The notes under the pieces are model-generated. The model searched no databases. It saw only the letters and a program-made list of their open reading frames with translations, and was not told the DNA's origin. Below, piece after piece: positions 32,993 to 38,716 of a stretch of DNA of 64,000 nt (positions within the stretch are counted from its first letter, which is position 1; each line of letters opens with the position of its first letter). The DNA comes from Alphaproteobacteria bacterium (GTDB lineage Bacteria > Pseudomonadota > Alphaproteobacteria > Rs-D84 > SZUA-605). The stretch spans positions 32,001 through 96,000 of the forward strand of contig JAVBPW010000005.1 in the NCBI GenBank assembly GCA_031549385.1, read 5' to 3'. Both the position numbers and the translations under genes were made by a program.

Positions 32993-33685
32993 TTACCAAG
33001 TTTTTTCCCAAAATCCTAAATCTTTAAATGTTTGGATTTCGTTTTTACCTACTATGATGTGGTCTATTAATGTTATGCCTAATGGTGATAACATATTAAA
33101 TAAATCTTTTGTTATATTAATATCATTAATTGATGGTGTTAGATTACCACTTGGGTGATTGTGAATTAATAATAATGATTTTGCTTCTGTTTCCATTGCT
33201 TGCTTGATTATATTGCGTGGATAGATTGTTGCATAATCTATTGTTCCTGATGATATTGTTTCATCTTTTATTAATGCACCTTTAGTGTCTAAATATAATA
33301 CATGAAATTCTTCATGCTTTTTATGTGATAAATGAGAAATGCAATATAATTTTAAATCATTCCAAGTTTTTAATAAAGTTTTACCTTTTATTTGTTGAGA
33401 GGTAGAAAATTTACAAATTTGTGCTACTAAATTTAATAGCGTTGCTGATTTTTCTGATATGCCTTTTGTTTTACATAATTTTGATACATCTTCATTTAAT
33501 AAATCTTGGATGCTAGGATAGTTTTTTATTAATTCTTTTGCTATTGGTTTTACGTCTATTCTTGGTATTGAAAATGTTAGTAGTAATTCTATTAATTCGT
33601 AATCAGAAAAACTTTCTGGATTTTTTTGAAATTTTTCCAAAATTCTTTGTCTGTGACCTGTATAATGTGGATCTTGTTTTTCCAT
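32993..33685 (-). CDS. radC: RadC family JAB-domain protein
   Basis: GHRQR, DYELIELLL, DVKPIAK, HNHPSG...PS..D, DHIIVG. Confidence 0.95.
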   Translation of the reverse strand: MEKQDPHYTGHRQRILEKFQKNPESFSDYELIELLLTFSIPRIDVKPIAKELIKNYPSIQDLLNEDVSKLCKTKGISEKSATLLNLVAQICKFSTSQQIKGKTLLKTWNDLKLYCISHLSHKKHEEFHVLYLDTKGALIKDETISSGTIDYATIYPRNIIKQAMETEAKSLLLIHNHPSGNLTPSINDINITKDLFNMLSPLGITLIDHIIVGKNEIQTFKDLGFWEKTW

Positions 33686-33786
33686 GAAGATAATTTTAAC
33701 ATTATTAGGAATAAAATCAAATGAAATTATTTTGATATTAAATTTGACAAAGTTAGATTATTTTTATATCTTGTTTGCATACATTT

Positions 33787-33863
33787 GGGTGTATAGCTCA
33801 GTTGGTTAGAGCACTACCTCGACAAGGTAGGGGTCATAAGTTCGAGTCTTATTACACCCACCA
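33787..33863 (+). tRNA. tRNA-Val(GAC), with C at position 33
   Basis: GGGTGTA/TACACCC acceptor, CTACC-TCGACAA-GGTAG anticodon arm, TTCGAGT T-loop, ACCA end. Confidence 0.92.
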
Positions 33864-33888
33864 TTTTTTGTAGATATTTAAATAAAAA

Positions 33889-33909
33889 AGCACAACAATG
33901 TGTTGTGCT
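33889..33909. terminator. Hairpin between tRNA-Val and the convergent ncRNA
   Basis: AGCACAACA-ATG-TGTTGTGCT flanked by A runs. Confidence 0.65.
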
Positions 33910-33924
33910 GATAAAAAAAACAGG

Positions 33925-34001
33925 CTATGACCTCTTTTGATGTTTTATCAAATTGTAGGCGTCCCCAAAACTTTTATGCACGCCTCGTTGTGTTGTCATA
34001 A
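33925..34001 (-). ncRNA. Unassigned three-way-junction RNA motif, copy 1
   Basis: UUAUGAC-AACACAACG-AGGCGU(..)ACGCCU-ACAA-UUUGAU(AAAAC)AUCAAA-AGAG-GUCAUAG; own promoter TTGACT-16-TATAAT (34039-34012); followed by a U run. Confidence 0.7.
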
Positions 34002-34061
34002 GAAGACTTTTATTATATAACATTATTAAGCTAAGTCAATTATTTTAAAAATAAAGGTAAT

Positions 34062-34087
34062 AAAAAATCCTCCCTTTCGGGAGGATC
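34062..34087 (-). terminator. Intrinsic terminator of the ACP-like ORF
   Basis: Minus strand ATCCTCCC-GAAA-GGGAGGAT followed by a T run. Confidence 0.85.
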
Positions 34088-34118
34088 GCTGTCAGAGACA
34101 GACATCAAACGCAAGCTA

Positions 34119-34415
34119 CTACGAAAAGCATTGTGCGAAGCGCTTTACAGTCAAAGGCTTTTGGCCTTTATCGTACCAGCTGGAAGTTAATTCAGCTGGA
34201 GACATGGTGAACGTGGTATTTGTTACTCGTTCTATCCTTTGGGCGGCAGCTGCTACATCTAAGTAGTCAACTTCCAGGCCAGTGTAGATATCACCATTGC
34301 CTTTTCGGTAAACTGTTTTTGCTACGCATTCGGCAGTTGTGCCGGTTTCTCTTGCGAGAGCCATGTAACAGGCTCTTTCCATGTCCCTTATCGGGACTTT
34401 TCTTTGTTTGTTCAT
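34119..34415 (-). CDS. Acyl-carrier-protein-like orphan lacking the phosphopantetheine Ser
   Basis: 98 aa from ATG 34415; DIYTGLEVDYLDVAAAAQRIE aligns with the ACP D...LG.DSLD......IE motif; C-terminal LTV. The ORF track's TTG start at 34475 is the -35 box. Confidence 0.5.
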   Translation of the reverse strand: MNKQRKVPIRDMERACYMALARETGTTAECVAKTVYRKGNGDIYTGLEVDYLDVAAAAQRIERVTNTTFTMSPAELTSSWYDKGQKPLTVKRFAQCFS

Positions 34416-34500
34416 ATATATTAAATTTTTAAGGTTTGAGCTCAAGATATTACCATTTAATTTAAAAAATGTCAAATATTAATTTAAAAAATTAAAATAT

Positions 34501-34538
34501 AAGGAAAAGAAAAGGGCAGATTTACTTAAAAATCTGCC
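34501..34538 (-). terminator. Terminator of the tRNA-like/ncRNA operon
   Basis: Minus strand GGCAGATTT-TTAAGT-AAATCTGCC-CTTTTCTTTT. Confidence 0.8.
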
Positions 34539-34564
34539 TCAATCCTAACTGTTTCAGTTGGTGC

Positions 34565-34622
34565 ATGCAACCTCCACCTTTCGGCTTGTAGGCGTGCAAA
34601 AACGCCTCGTTATTTGTTGCAT
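34565..34622 (-). ncRNA. Unassigned three-way-junction RNA motif, copy 2
   Basis: AUGCAAC-AAAUAACG-AGGCGU(UUUUGC)ACGCCU-ACAA-GCC(GAAA)GGU-GGAG-GUUGCAU; starts 4 nt after the second tRNA-like gene. Confidence 0.7.
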
Positions 34623-34626
34623 TTTG

Positions 34627-34697
34627 AAAGGGTGACGGGCACTGATCCCGCGACCTTCTCCTAGCAAGGAGCTGCTCTACCTCTGAGCTACACCCTT
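34627..34697 (-). tRNA. Aberrant tRNA-like gene (Gly-like body, 6-nt anticodon loop TTGCTA)
   Basis: AAGGGTG/CACCCTT acceptor, GCTC/GAGC D-stem, CTCC/GGAG anticodon stem, GCGGG/CCCGT T-stem with non-canonical loop ATCAGTG; no CCA. Confidence 0.7.
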
Positions 34698-34723
34698 TGT
34701 CCTATAGGGTTTTAATAACCCTG

Positions 34724-34796
34724 CGGGCATGACTGGATTTGAACCAGCTACCTGGTCGTTTAGAATGACTTGCTTTACCAAATCAGCTTCATGCCC
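34724..34796 (-). tRNA. tRNA-like gene with CUA (amber suppressor-type) anticodon
   Basis: GGGCATG/CATGCCC acceptor, D-loop with GG, anticodon loop TT-CTA-AA (CTA at 34763-34761), GCTGG-TTCAAAT-CCAGT T-arm, G73; A8 and two anticodon-stem mismatches; no CCA. Confidence 0.75.
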
Positions 34797-34833
34797 CTTT
34801 GAATTTATATATAATTCGTAAGTAACTGAGTTA

Positions 34834-34862
34834 GTTATATGAAAGATTTTCGAATTTGTCAA
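34834..34862 (-). promoter_or_regulatory. Sigma70-type promoter of the tRNA-like/ncRNA operon
   Basis: TTGACA (34862-34857), 17 nt spacer, TATAAC (34839-34834). Confidence 0.75.
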
Positions 34863-35417
34863 TTAAAATTTTAGCGAATAACCATTATCGTCAGTTTGTA
34901 TTAAATTGGCTTGAGTTGTGAGTTCTAGCTTTTGACGAAGGTTGTAAATGTGAGTCTTCAAAGTGTTTGTTTGAATGTTTTTGTCGTATCCCCAAATATT
35001 TTTCAATATTTCATCAGGGGTTGCATAGTGATTTGGTTGTTTTAATAAGAATAATAGTAATTCTTGTTCTTTTTGAGTTAATTCTATTTCTTGTTTGTTG
35101 CAAAAGAATGTGTTGTCTTTGATTTTGAACTTATCACAAGTAAAGGAATCTTCTGAAACTAATAAATCTTTTATTTTTTGCTTTAATTCAGATGGAAGAA
35201 TAGGGAGCTTTATAAAATGTGGTCCTTCTTTTTCGTCTGAAACTACTAGGTATCTCTTTGAATTTTGAGGAATATCTTTTTCATTGATTGTTATAATAAA
35301 AGAATCTTTATCATTAGTTTTGCTTTTTGTTGTGGAAATTGTTTTAAACATACCTTTAAGTAAGGATGTTAATAACCCTTCTTCCAATTTATCAAAACCT
35401 ATTAAGATTAAATTCAT
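34863..35417 (-). CDS. OmpR/PhoB-type winged-helix protein with degenerate receiver domain
   Basis: LTQKEQELLLFL, IWGY, TNTLKTHIYNLRQKL, GYSL; likely start ATG 35417. Confidence 0.85.
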   Translation of the reverse strand: MNLILIGFDKLEEGLLTSLLKGMFKTISTTKSKTNDKDSFIITINEKDIPQNSKRYLVVSDEKEGPHFIKLPILPSELKQKIKDLLVSEDSFTCDKFKIKDNTFFCNKQEIELTQKEQELLLFLLKQPNHYATPDEILKNIWGYDKNIQTNTLKTHIYNLRQKLELTTQANLIQTDDNGYSLKF

Positions 35418-35441
35418 GCGATTTTCAATGTTTAGTGTTAG

Positions 35442-36762: not shown

Positions 36763-37629
36763 ATGGAAATAAAAAAATTATTTGGTGGAAATTCACTTGT
36801 CAGAGATTTAAAAAAAGGTGATGCTTATTCTTTAGGTAAAAATATTTATGGAAATGAACAGACTATAGAATTAGACAATATGTCTGCATTAGATGGTTTA
36901 GCTAATCAACTTTATGCTTCTTCTAAAGAATATGACTTGAAGGAAATTGCTAAACGATATTCTGGACAAGATCCTAAAACTTTAGCTAAGATGATGGCTG
37001 TTAATACATATATGATTGGTGAAAATCTTGATAATGCAGAAGCTAAAAAAATTAATTTGAAAATGCAAAGAGAAGATTTTGCTTTTTCACAGTTGCATGG
37101 AAATCATGTTGTTAATCCTGCGGTAACTAATTTGACTACTCAATATCTTTTACAAAAGATGGGTGCAGATAGTAGAATATTCAATGGAAAAATTGGTTTT
37201 ATCGAAGATGAAGTACAAATTGAAAATACTTCTGTTGTCGTGAGAGATGAAAATGGTAATCCTATGATGTTGGATTTTAATGATGATAATATAGACCCAA
37301 TTAACGATAGGAATATTCCTATATTTAATGTTAAAGGTGGGGCTGGAAATTATGATAAACTTCTTGAACAAGGTGAAAAACAAGCAGCTTTTGTTCAATG
37401 GGATGGAGTTGGTTATAATAAGGGAAGTTACCTTTATGGAGTGGATAGAAAAAGTTCTATTGAAATTGATGAAAGAAGTATTATTGGAAATAGTGCTTTT
37501 GAAGGAAAATATAAAGCTTTCAAAAGAAAATCTGATAATCAATTTGAACAGACGTTCCAAAATACAGATGAAGAACTTCAAAGATTTATTGAATTTGCTA
37601 TTAGAAATAAATTTGAATCTCCAGAATAA
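36763..37629 (+). CDS. Hypothetical protein
   Basis: 288 aa ORF with host-like codon usage, starting 1 nt after ccrM. Confidence 0.65.
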   Translation: MEIKKLFGGNSLVRDLKKGDAYSLGKNIYGNEQTIELDNMSALDGLANQLYASSKEYDLKEIAKRYSGQDPKTLAKMMAVNTYMIGENLDNAEAKKINLKMQREDFAFSQLHGNHVVNPAVTNLTTQYLLQKMGADSRIFNGKIGFIEDEVQIENTSVVVRDENGNPMMLDFNDDNIDPINDRNIPIFNVKGGAGNYDKLLEQGEKQAAFVQWDGVGYNKGSYLYGVDRKSSIEIDERSIIGNSAFEGKYKAFKRKSDNQFEQTFQNTDEELQRFIEFAIRNKFESPE

Positions 37630-37701
37630 ATTCGTTCTTGTAATATCTTAAATATTTATGTATTATAACCTCATATTTAATTTAAAGTATGAGGTTTTAT
37701 T

Positions 37702-37935
37702 ATGAGTGAATTTAAAGATTTAACTTTCGAAGATGCTATGAAAAGATTAGATGAAATTATTGCTAAGATGGAAGGTGGTAATGTTCCTTTAGAAAAATCT
37801 GTTGAAATGTATGAGATGGGAATGAAATTAAAAGAGTTTTGCAGTACTAAACTTAATGAAGCACGTCTTAAAGTTGAACAAATTGAAAATTTGGGTGATG
37901 GAAAAGTTGCTTTAAAGGAATTTAACGTAGAATAA
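37702..37935 (+). CDS. xseB: Exodeoxyribonuclease VII small subunit
   Basis: TFEDAM.RL.EII..ME.G..PLE.S...YE.G..L...C...L..A. Confidence 0.95.
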   Translation: MSEFKDLTFEDAMKRLDEIIAKMEGGNVPLEKSVEMYEMGMKLKEFCSTKLNEARLKVEQIENLGDGKVALKEFNVE

Positions 37936-37936
37936 T

Positions 37937-38716
37937 ATGATTGAAGAAAAACGAGCAGAAATTGTTAAGAGTGCTAAGAAGTCTTTAGGGCAAAATTTCT
38001 TACTGGATGTTGGTATTGTTGATAAGATAGCAGGGCAGTTAAAATATTTAGATAAGGTTGTTGAAATTGGACCTGGAGTTGCTACTCTTACTGAAGCAGT
38101 GTTGCGTAGAAAGCCTAAAAAAATGGTTTCTATTGAAAAAGATGAGCGATTGTCTGAATTGCTTGATGAAGTTAAAATAAAATACCCTAATTTTGATTAT
38201 AAAAATATTGATGCTTTGAAAATTAATTGGAGCAAAGATTTTGAAGGTAAATATAGTTTGATTTCTAATTTGCCTTATAATATTTCTACTGTTTTAATGG
38301 TTAGTTTTGTTTATAACTATAGTGTTTTTAATGAACTTGTTTTAATGTTTCAAAAAGAAGTTGGAATGAGGATTTTAGCTAAGTCTGGAAGTGAATATGG
38401 AAGACTTTCTGTTATGGTGCAATCTGTGTTTGATGTTAATAAAGTAATGGACTTGAAACCTGGTGCGTTTTATCCTGCACCTAAAGTTGAAAGTAGTGTT
38501 TTGTATTTTAAGCCTAATGGAAATAAATTATCTTTAAAGCAATTGGAAAGATTAGATATTATTAGTAAAGTTGCATTTGAAAATAGACGTAAAAAAGTAA
38601 TTACTGGTTTGAAAAAAATTATTCCTAATGCAGAAGAAAAATTTAATGAACTTAAAATATCTTTAGATAGTAGGGCAGAGCAAATTACTGTTGAGCAGTA
38701 TTTAAAATTAATATAA
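37937..38716 (+). CDS. rsmA: 16S rRNA dimethyladenosine transferase
   Basis: KSLGQNFL, EIGPG, NLPYNIS, MFQKEV, FYPAPKVES. Confidence 0.97.
   Translation: MIEEKRAEIVKSAKKSLGQNFLLDVGIVDKIAGQLKYLDKVVEIGPGVATLTEAVLRRKPKKMVSIEKDERLSELLDEVKIKYPNFDYKNIDALKINWSKDFEGKYSLISNLPYNISTVLMVSFVYNYSVFNELVLMFQKEVGMRILAKSGSEYGRLSVMVQSVFDVNKVMDLKPGAFYPAPKVESSVLYFKPNGNKLSLKQLERLDIISKVAFENRRKKVITGLKKIIPNAEEKFNELKISLDSRAEQITVEQYLKLI

Follow-up and report, generated by a model that had tools for sequence, protein, structure and literature searches.

Is the group of small RNA-like elements that lies between a tRNA-Val gene and a winged-helix gene in a reduced alphaproteobacterial genome a working RNA system, or is it the debris of a foreign tRNA array? 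The window analysed here is a stretch of 64,000 nucleotides (nt) from contig JAVBPW010000005.1 of assembly GCA_031549385.1 (positions 32,001–96,000; all coordinates below count from its first base unless another contig or record is named). It lies on contig C2 of a genome (G000) of 931,143 bases in 8 contigs, 97% complete and with about 30% G+C. The elements in question, referred to here as the island (33889–34862), are bordered by tRNA-Val (33787–33863, plus strand) and the winged-helix gene (34863–35420, minus strand) and form three minus-strand units: two tRNA-like genes followed by a small junction-forming RNA (copy A), an open reading frame (ORF) of 98 codons, and a second junction RNA (copy B). 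Judged from its sequence and predicted fold, this junction RNA belongs to a widespread family whose core does not vary; in phages, its relatives mostly stand directly behind tRNA look-alikes with aberrant anticodon regions.

A duplicated junction RNA with covarying helices

An earlier sequence-only reading of the locus had described a duplicated structured RNA, and this description holds: the core pattern is matched at copies A and B and nowhere else in the 931-kb genome, and the two, which both contain ACGAGGCG and CGCCUACAA, arrive at one common fold from differing P1 and P3 sequences. Both possess every element of the layout, which reads P1, AAYNAAC, P2 (GAGGCG..CGCCUAC, with a bulged A), AA, P3, RGAG and P1', and closes as a three-way junction. 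Copy A (34557–34624, minus strand; recognised by the core pattern, alignments and the covariance model R1 described below) folds over 58 nt, with P1 AUGCAAC/GUUGCAU (34622–34616 with 34571–34565), a short P2 with a 6-nt loop, P3 GCC-GAAA-GGU and GGAG in J3/1, and is built like the phage members L087 and L160. Copy B (33917–34003, minus strand; recognised by R1, alignment and covariation) has P1 UAUGAC/GUCAUA (34000–33995 with 33931–33926), a long P2 with a UGGGGA internal loop, P3 UUUGAU/AUCAAA, AGAG in J3/1 and a U run at its end. By their build, the copies are assigned to different subtypes, A to that of the phages and B to that of bacterial chromosomes. The 3' strand of P1 in copy A also sits within an 8-base palindrome, UGCAUGCA (34565–34572), which could rival the formation of P1 or let two molecules pair.

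RNAalifold, run on 16 sequences, independently yielded the same three helices as a three-way junction. When a hand-written structure was applied to 15 chromosomal members, 99.0% of the cells paired, versus 40.0–48.2% with slid partners; changes on both sides occurred at five of six P1 pairs and four of five P3 pairs, and the score was attained in 0 of 500 shuffles. P2 was invariant across these 15 members, but the pattern by which they were selected had demanded it. The covariation of P1 and P3 supports the earlier suggestion that the RNAs have been under selection rather than in decay.

The covariance model R1 was built from chromosomal copies only, and genome scans with it were run with strict filters. 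Copy B scored 86.5 bits (E = 1.1e-17), within the range of 75.6–100.8 bits spanned by the copies of a sister family of the host (f5), and copy A 32.7 bits (E = 3.4e-4 over the genome). At gathering thresholds, only tRNA passed among the Rfam 15 families in the window, leaving copies A and B and unit 2 without a family, and at E ≤ 10 nothing relevant besides tRNA and chance rows was obtained on 33700–35000. The Rfam comparison that the sequence-only reading had proposed thus assigns only the tRNA-like genes, among all elements of the island, to a known family. No description of the junction motif was found in text searches of the literature, supplements excluded.

The junction RNA in phages and its tie to tRNA look-alikes

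The core pattern matched at least 119 stretches in IMG/VR, many of them chance matches in G+C-rich coding sequence; a crude rule on P1 marked 35 of the 109 distinct matches listed as family-like, about four of these falsely by eye. Members of the clear phage set have short P2 loops and all features of the family, and come in two forms, a three-way junction like that of copy A and a four-way junction in which an additional hairpin parts GUA from GAA in the first of the joining strands. With R1, 22 matches at E ≤ 1 were obtained on 100 phage loci; 96.9% of their cells pair, versus 33.6–46.0% with slid partners, and both-side changes are seen in every P1 and P3 pair, in an alignment that was itself fitted to R1. 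A scan that did not ask for P2, requiring only GAACAACGAG, CUACAA and GAGAG, gave 72 distinct matches, 56 of which have the P2 base GCG..CGC, the remaining 16 looking like coding chance; since the P2 base is kept in such a scan, it is conserved in sequence and not an artefact of the pattern. Phages that differ widely in habitat and in G+C content have about 20 invariant positions of this RNA in common. The four-way member compared with Rfam 15 had no family at E ≤ 10, and tRNAs alone passed gathering thresholds in the 12 phage loci scanned, of which L078, L087, L092, L104 and L115 have the motif in or beside tRNA arrays.

Most phage members are preceded by a T-arm and the 3' strand of an acceptor stem, then 1–5 bases, then P1. 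A T-loop-like word was found within 75 nt upstream in 45 of the 56 four-way members, and in at least 31 of them ARAGORN, with introns allowed, called a tRNA whose end lies immediately ahead of P1. All but one of these 31 calls require an insertion of 30–71 nt in the anticodon region, and the anticodons called are scattered. When drawn as secondary structures, the genes show normal acceptor, D and T arms, and a large and varied domain replaces the anticodon arm. In L078, the preceding tRNA is of normal length and has a UUA anticodon, with C at position 33 as read from the sequence. Such aberrant anticodon regions argue that the conserved partner of the motif is a tRNA-shaped body unable to decode normally. 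In the island, copy A starts 5 nt past the discriminator of the second tRNA-like gene, matching the phage layout, and the 6-nt anticodon loop of that gene fits a non-decoding, tRNA-shaped partner. The sequence-only reading had offered a domesticated piece of a phage tRNA array as one explanation of the island, and the presence of the same RNA in or beside phage arrays, directly behind aberrant tRNA-like bodies, agrees with it.

No protein gene recurred beside the phage members: among 540 ORFs from 47 loci, clusters comprised at most four closely related contigs. One member belongs to a cultured phage, Tetrasphaera phage TJE1 (HQ225832.1; R1 43.7 bits, E = 2e-9), where an unannotated gap of 1.7 kb (about 36876–38602 of the record) contains the junction RNA at positions 1500–1568 of the locus extracted (L394). 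In L075, L086, L094, L141, L315, L316, L319, L333 and others, the insertion in the tRNA-like gene often contains a small hairpin with a palindromic hexamer in its loop, which varies by lineage (UGAUCA, UAAUUA, ACUAGU) and could let two RNAs kiss.

The junction RNA in cellular genomes

Comparison of the island with 40 relatives by DNA likeness returned only the stretch of copy B, matched in three genomes of another family, together with AT-rich or tRNA pieces. The exact core pattern was present in 15 of 172 genomes of the sister family f5 and in none of 28 genomes of other families. R1 detected the RNA in 13 of 122 f5 genomes sampled and in the host itself, and in none of 28 genomes of the order's other families or of 149 genomes of other alphaproteobacterial families. 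The subtype of copy B is therefore patchy, being confined, apart from the host, to one other family among the genomes scanned with R1. The f5 copies stand alone, each with its own promoter, and most lie directly downstream of a gene whose end reads as a ychF C-terminus (a reading of the flanks, with no family search). At the f5 loci L016–L030, the TTGACA -35 box of the RNA overlaps the stop codon of this ychF-like gene, within AATAATTGACA. Copy B is preceded by a similar string, AAAATAATTGAC, though no ychF is found there; the string may be a trace of the transfer of copy B along with its promoter.

A scan of genome contigs for the core gave at least 120 stretches, with coding chance matches forming the majority among the matches listed. 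A crude rule classed nine of the listed matches as family-like, several of them wrongly; by eye, the matches listed include a handful of true members, such as L221 (an uncultured alphaproteobacterium), L211, L246, L264 and L237. Two of these are family-like four-way members outside Pseudomonadota, L237 on a contig of a metagenome-assembled genome (MAG) of Methanobacteriota and L211 in a Candidatus Paceibacterota MAG. The member in L237 follows a T-arm and an acceptor strand ending in CCA. Both may be proviral.

The two tRNA-like genes

ARAGORN made two minus-strand tRNA calls in the island, at 34723–34796 (CUA anticodon) and 34626–34697 (6-nt loop, 'gc'), and the Rfam tRNA model (RF00005; gathering score 29) gave 54.7 bits on 34724–34796 and 44.5 bits on 34627–34697, so that the pair of tRNA-like genes, one of them CUA, proposed from the sequence alone was recovered by both programs. 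They rank 31st and last among the 37 tRNA matches of the genome. CCA is encoded in 35 of the 37 tRNA genes called by ARAGORN, only the two island genes being without it; it should be noted that encoded CCA as a criterion is a habit of this host and not a general rule. The other 35 genes form an ordinary set.

Canonical tRNAs have U8 and a T-loop of the UUCRANY type; of this pair of features, the first tRNA-like gene departs in having A at position 8 and the second in its T-loop, AUCAGUG. The first has a perfect acceptor stem, a canonical T-loop and a 7-nt anticodon loop with U33, and departs further in A.C at both end pairs of the anticodon stem, marked as non-canonical by Rfam. The second has a 6-nt anticodon loop, UUGCUA (one loop position missing relative to Rfam), and G3:U70; the nearest host tRNA is Gly-GCC, with 56 identical positions. 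The G3:U70 pair, which we take to be an identity element for alanine, may be a lead to alanine charging. Together with the alphaproteobacterial host, it also brought a two-piece tmRNA into consideration, which was ruled out by the host's own alpha-type tmRNA (166.8 bits) and SmpB. An exact scan of viral contigs for the T-arm of the second gene gave no matches, and a scan for its T-loop combined with the core gave 19 metagenome stretches, by eye all G+C-rich coding chance matches.

RF1 is present (511.7 bits to the prfA model, over the cut-off) and TAG terminates 98 of the 573 host ORFs of 600 nt or more; the host therefore reads TAG as stop, and reassignment of this codon is unlikely. With 35 ordinary tRNAs, RF1 and TAG as a common stop, it needs neither tRNA-like gene for decoding.

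Expression signals and RNA-library evidence

The sequence-only reading had placed three minus-strand units with promoters and terminators or U runs in the island, and the sequence and a consensus scan agree. The scan found eight promoter-like sites versus 3.8 expected and six terminator-like sites versus 0.9; three terminator-like hairpins lie on the minus strand of the island (34538–34515, 34087–34066 and 33909–33889). Unit 1 opens with a promoter-like site read from the sequence at 34834–34862 (TTGACA-17-TATAAC), immediately after the stop codon of the winged-helix gene; it is absent from the scan because the scan demands T as the last base of the -10 box, which here is C. The two tRNA-like genes are separated by the spacer hairpin that had been described (34706–34722, minus strand; AGGGUU-AUUAA-AACCCU), which is formed in the minimum-energy structure. 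Behind copy A, the segment 34505–34560 (minus strand) holds a short hairpin, CAACUG-AAA-CAGUUag (34560–34545), and the terminator-like hairpin of unit 1 with its U run. Unit 2 has a promoter-like site at 34447–34475 (minus strand; TTGACA-17-TAATAT with an extended TG before the -10 box, 10/12 in the scan) and a scan-detected terminator-like hairpin at 34066–34087 (minus strand; nine pairs, GAAA loop, U run). Unit 3 has a promoter-like site at 34012–34039 (minus strand; TTGACT-16-TATAAT, 11/12 in the scan), and a second terminator-like hairpin behind copy B, also found by the scan (33889–33909, minus strand), faces the 3' end of tRNA-Val.

One publicly deposited DNA run (X1), from the gut metagenome of an invertebrate, contains the whole stretch; it is probably the source sample and so not independent. 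A single metatranscriptome run of the same study (X2) contains part of it. Its contigs were aligned to 33500–35300, where one of 159 nt matches 34627–34785 with 0 differences, bridging the first tRNA-like gene (of which it takes in 34723–34785), the spacer and the second tRNA-like gene, and one of 344 nt covers the ORF unit at 34079–34422, again with 0 differences. Both stretches thus occur in an RNA library. No X2 contig lay on copy A, copy B, or the RadC and winged-helix genes, which is no evidence of their absence; the end of the 159-nt contig at 34627, the discriminator of the second tRNA-like gene, and the depths of 55 and 2.4 were not used as evidence.

Unit 2: structured RNA, small protein gene, or both

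The ORF of unit 2 (34119–34415, minus strand) encodes 98 amino acids from an ATG or 118 from an upstream TTG and ends in TAG TAG; it lies within the 344-nt stretch (34079–34422, minus strand) present in the RNA library. The sequence-only reading had called it ACP-like, that is, similar to an acyl carrier protein, whose hallmark is the serine of a D-S-L motif. The ORF reads D-Y-L-D, and the name could not be upheld: its product matched no Pfam family at E ≤ 1 and had no relatives in a word search of 5.8 billion clusters or, with HMMER, among 1.84 billion representative proteins. The Atlas cluster nearest to it reached 0.86, below the mark of 0.9, and 18% of the members of that cluster carry PF00550. 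Back-translation scans found no relatives in metagenome or viral contigs, NCBIfam and sequences of the PDB gave no match, PHROGs gave one row only (E = 0.066), and nhmmer against all collected loci and the genome returned the ORF itself alone.

Unit 2 may instead be a conventional gene for a small protein, such as a helix-turn-helix DNA binder or a remnant of a homing endonuclease as found in phage tRNA clusters, but this is rather unlikely. An open frame of 98–118 codons with its own promoter and terminator would suit such a gene, as would a weak PADLOC match to the homing endonuclease PDLC03704 (E = 0.0056, 15 bits; ORF residues 22–65 on profile positions 31–74 of 131), an all-helical single-sequence fold model and a language-model recognition value of 2587, above the mark of 2300. 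Against it stand, besides the missing relatives and families, the low confidence of the fold model (predicted local distance difference test, pLDDT, 42), a G+C content that is flat across codon positions (0.465, 0.465, 0.444) and the lack of a Shine-Dalgarno-like purine run ahead of the ATG. The RNA is also unusually well folded for a coding stretch: the unit (43.8% G+C) differs from shuffled sequences by z = -5.07 with the terminator and -4.25 without it (opposite strand, -3.98), whereas two host coding stretches of equal length gave +0.47 and +1.77. Because the ORF is an orphan with flat G+C and the stretch folds strongly, we treat unit 2 as a possible structured RNA that may also, or instead, be a small protein gene.

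Origin of the island

The island has 39.1% G+C, versus 25.2% and 30.4% in its flanks and 30.0% in the window, and its segment 34141–34200 holds 27 G+C in 60, a count that the sequence-only reading had given exactly along with the observation that the island exceeds its flanks. From this composition, the tRNA-like genes without CCA, the phage build of copy A and the patchy occurrence of the copy B subtype, we infer a foreign origin of the island and assign unit 1 to elements of the phage tRNA-array type, composition and likeness of layout being the grounds for a phage origin. Matches of the island DNA to phages (42 records) and plasmids (3 records) were generic tRNA matches only, and a repeat search at the island returned short AT-rich repeats only. 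The search of relatives and phages proposed earlier succeeded in part, in that the junction RNA was found and the order of elements of the whole island was not.

Proposed mode of action and alternatives

The explanation that we favour, with slightly more belief than doubt, is that the tRNA-like bodies are handles and that cuts made at them release the junction RNA, which acts through its core on a conserved partner. The island would then be a small foreign cassette of the phage tRNA-array type, retained and transcribed in a reduced (0.93 Mb, 30% G+C) alphaproteobacterium of an invertebrate gut. Unit 1 would give a single precursor comprising the CUA tRNA-like, the tRNA-like with the 6-nt loop and copy A. 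The tRNA-like bodies would not be decoders but folding and processing handles recognised by tRNA-processing enzymes, with RNase P cutting on the 5' flank of each and an endonuclease cutting past the discriminator; these cuts would free the junction RNA as a small stable RNA, able to act on its partner through the invariant core. Unit 3 would provide a second junction RNA from its own promoter, of the chromosomal subtype as in f5, and unit 2 a transcribed, unusually structured RNA of 0.35 kb with the orphan 98-codon ORF. That the core AAC-GAGGCG...CGCCUAC-AA...RGAG is invariant amid free helices argues for a conserved partner in translation or RNA processing, or for catalysis. It had been suggested from the sequence that tRNA bodies might act as processing signals for the RNA downstream, which would fit the conserved layout and the X2 contig bridging both tRNA-like genes.

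Several observations weigh against this explanation. Copy B, which has a promoter of its own, is not preceded by a tRNA, so that not every member needs a handle, and ARAGORN called no tRNA in the TJE1 gap or upstream of the motif in L087. No RNase Z turned up in the genome, which is 97% complete, leaving the enzyme of the 3' cut unnamed. The A8, the A.C pairs, the 6-nt loop and the odd T-loop are what plain decay would also yield. As the sequence-only reading had noted, no integrase adjoins the island (the nearest integrase-family match, C2:108393, is about 42 kb away and outside the window); nor was there a phage gene beside it, an att repeat, or a second tRNA-Val 3' end (≤3 mismatches) in the window. 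No relative of the whole island was found in the genomes of relatives, phages, plasmids, viral or metagenome contigs, which leaves no basis for judging how conserved the two tRNA-like genes and unit 2 are. The RNA-library contigs come from one study and reveal neither ends, strand nor level, and RNA libraries can contain DNA. Finally, the junction RNA counts as undescribed by the measure of Rfam 15 and text searches alone.

Some of these observations would also suit inert debris, namely a decaying phage or mobile tRNA array with pseudo-tRNAs, in which transcription is noise arising at AT-rich sequences that resemble promoters by chance: consensus features are broken in the two tRNA-like genes, no relatives of the whole island were found, integrase and att sites were not found at it, and its ORF is an orphan. 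We consider this improbable, since both junction copies keep all core positions and helices of a structurally selected family, promoter-like and terminator-like sites, three of each, remain intact although a genome of 0.93 Mb has little spare DNA, and contigs of the RNA library span two units.

There is little probability in the alternative that the island is a translation module, in which the CUA gene is an amber suppressor and the gene with the 6-nt loop a frameshift-prone or otherwise special tRNA, the two together adjusting how far TAG is read through, whether in the host or in a recoded phage. The CUA triplet does lie in a 7-nt loop with U33, in a gene with a perfect acceptor stem, a canonical T-loop and a tRNA score of 54.7 bits, most of which is covered by an RNA-library contig (34723–34785); the genome encodes a protein of the CCA-adding enzyme family, the adjacent ORF ends in a double TAG, and phage member L078 has a tRNA with a UUA anticodon at the same position. 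RF1 and the use of TAG as a stop in 98 of 573 long ORFs speak against such a module, as do A8 and the two A.C pairs, which weaken the CUA gene. Moreover, the phage handles have no constant anticodon and mostly no normal anticodon arm, so that decoding is not the conserved feature.

We also give small credence to the junction RNA being a ribozyme that cuts its own 5' border and thereby trims the CCA-less tRNA-like body without RNase Z, although self-cleavage is compatible with the handle layout. A small multi-helix junction with an invariant centre and P2 base, free helix lengths and loops, and three- and four-way versions resembles what might be expected of a ribozyme, its place 1–5 nt behind the tRNA-like discriminator is fixed, and RNase Z was not found in the host genome. 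No ribozyme family of Rfam 15 was matched, however, and 5' self-cleavage would be without obvious use in copy B and the f5 copies, which have their own promoters. Very improbable, finally, is a decoy role, in which the tRNA-like RNAs would sequester anticodon nucleases or other toxins aimed at tRNA: phage tRNA arrays may counter defences that cleave tRNAs, and look-alikes with non-decoding anticodon regions resemble what a decoy should be, but no nuclease or defence gene was found beside the island (no PADLOC family in the neighbouring proteins, and only the weak match of the ORF), and the varied long insertions that replace the anticodon region of the phage handles mimic no single target.

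The junction RNA is best placed among the non-coding RNAs (ncRNAs) of phage tRNA arrays, with a fair chance that it represents a new functional class. More tentatively, and with belief falling somewhat short of doubt, we suggest that a handle joined to a three- or four-way junction could constitute an undescribed and widespread class of phage RNA that acts on a universal partner in translation or RNA processing, or is a self-freeing ribozyme, and that reduced gut alphaproteobacteria have domesticated it, keeping both copy types beside a novel structured RNA of 0.35 kb.

Neighbouring genes and other features of the host

Alphaproteobacterial marks of the host genome are its alpha-type tmRNA, located on a different contig from the window, and a RAMA-domain DNA methylase within the window, which we take to be of the CcrM kind. 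Directly behind this methylase, a 288-amino-acid ORF (36763–37629, plus strand) gave no match of useful E-value to families of Pfam, PHROG, PADLOC or NCBIfam. The winged-helix gene (34863–35420, minus strand) has an output domain of the OmpR/PhoB type only (Trans_reg_C, E = 1.1e-18, residues 110–178), with no receiver domain match in family searches, and also matches phrog_731; because the longest ORF call overruns into tRNA-Cys, its true start lies further in. A second release-factor match (G000:C7:103162–104169; 270.7 bits to the prfA model), presumably prfB, contains one in-frame TAA; programmed frameshifting in prfB normally takes place at a TGA.

Comparison with known systems

Phage tRNA arrays are common, and the ncRNAs that accompany them (GOLLD, ROOL and the stable RNAs of T4) are among the least understood RNAs. 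The junction RNA is compact, has a fixed core and covarying helices, is physically tied to tRNA look-alikes that do not decode, and is small enough for direct biochemistry; it is available in a cultured phage, TJE1, and, under a promoter of its own, in a bacterial lineage. Should the handle model prove right, bacteria and phages would offer a natural example of a cargo RNA released under the guidance of a tRNA-like body; should the core bind to the ribosome or to an enzyme of RNA processing, phages would have a new route by which to touch host translation. For annotation, phage tRNA calls with 'introns' may mark a composite of handle and junction RNA rather than real tRNAs.

Among RNAs with tRNA-like parts, YrlA (RF02553), an ncRNA with a tRNA-like module that occurs in phages, gave a weak match on the island spacer (20.5 bits versus a gathering score of 69); its module is located inside the closing stem, whereas the island has a complete tRNA-like gene and then a separate junction domain. 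Phages with reassigned stop codons carry suppressor tRNAs, and the likeness to these lies in a foreign-looking CUA gene in a gut bacterium and in the UUA-anticodon tRNA before the motif in L078; unlike in such phages, the host keeps RF1 and TAG as stop, the CUA gene has A8 and two A.C pairs, and no recoded phage genes are nearby. In MALAT1-mascRNA and in tRNA-flanked guide RNA cassettes, a tRNA-shaped body recruits RNase P or RNase Z, separating the neighbouring RNA. Those systems are eukaryotic or engineered, while here the putative handle lies 5' of its cargo, in phages and one bacterium, and its cleavage is predicted. The tRNA gene cluster of phage T4 encodes the species 1 and 2 RNAs, small stable RNAs without a known function that are transcribed along with tRNAs and freed by the tRNA-processing enzymes; the likeness of the island RNA to them is one of layout.

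According to a published account, GOLLD and ROOL are encoded by phages and prophages, often near tRNA islands and sometimes with tRNAs inside or adjacent, their function being unknown, and they measure about 600–800 nt or more and form multimeric cages (PMC12286853). The junction RNA resembles them in being a conserved structured RNA in or beside tRNA arrays, and differs in its length of 55–95 nt, in its simple three- or four-way junction and in matching neither of their Rfam models.

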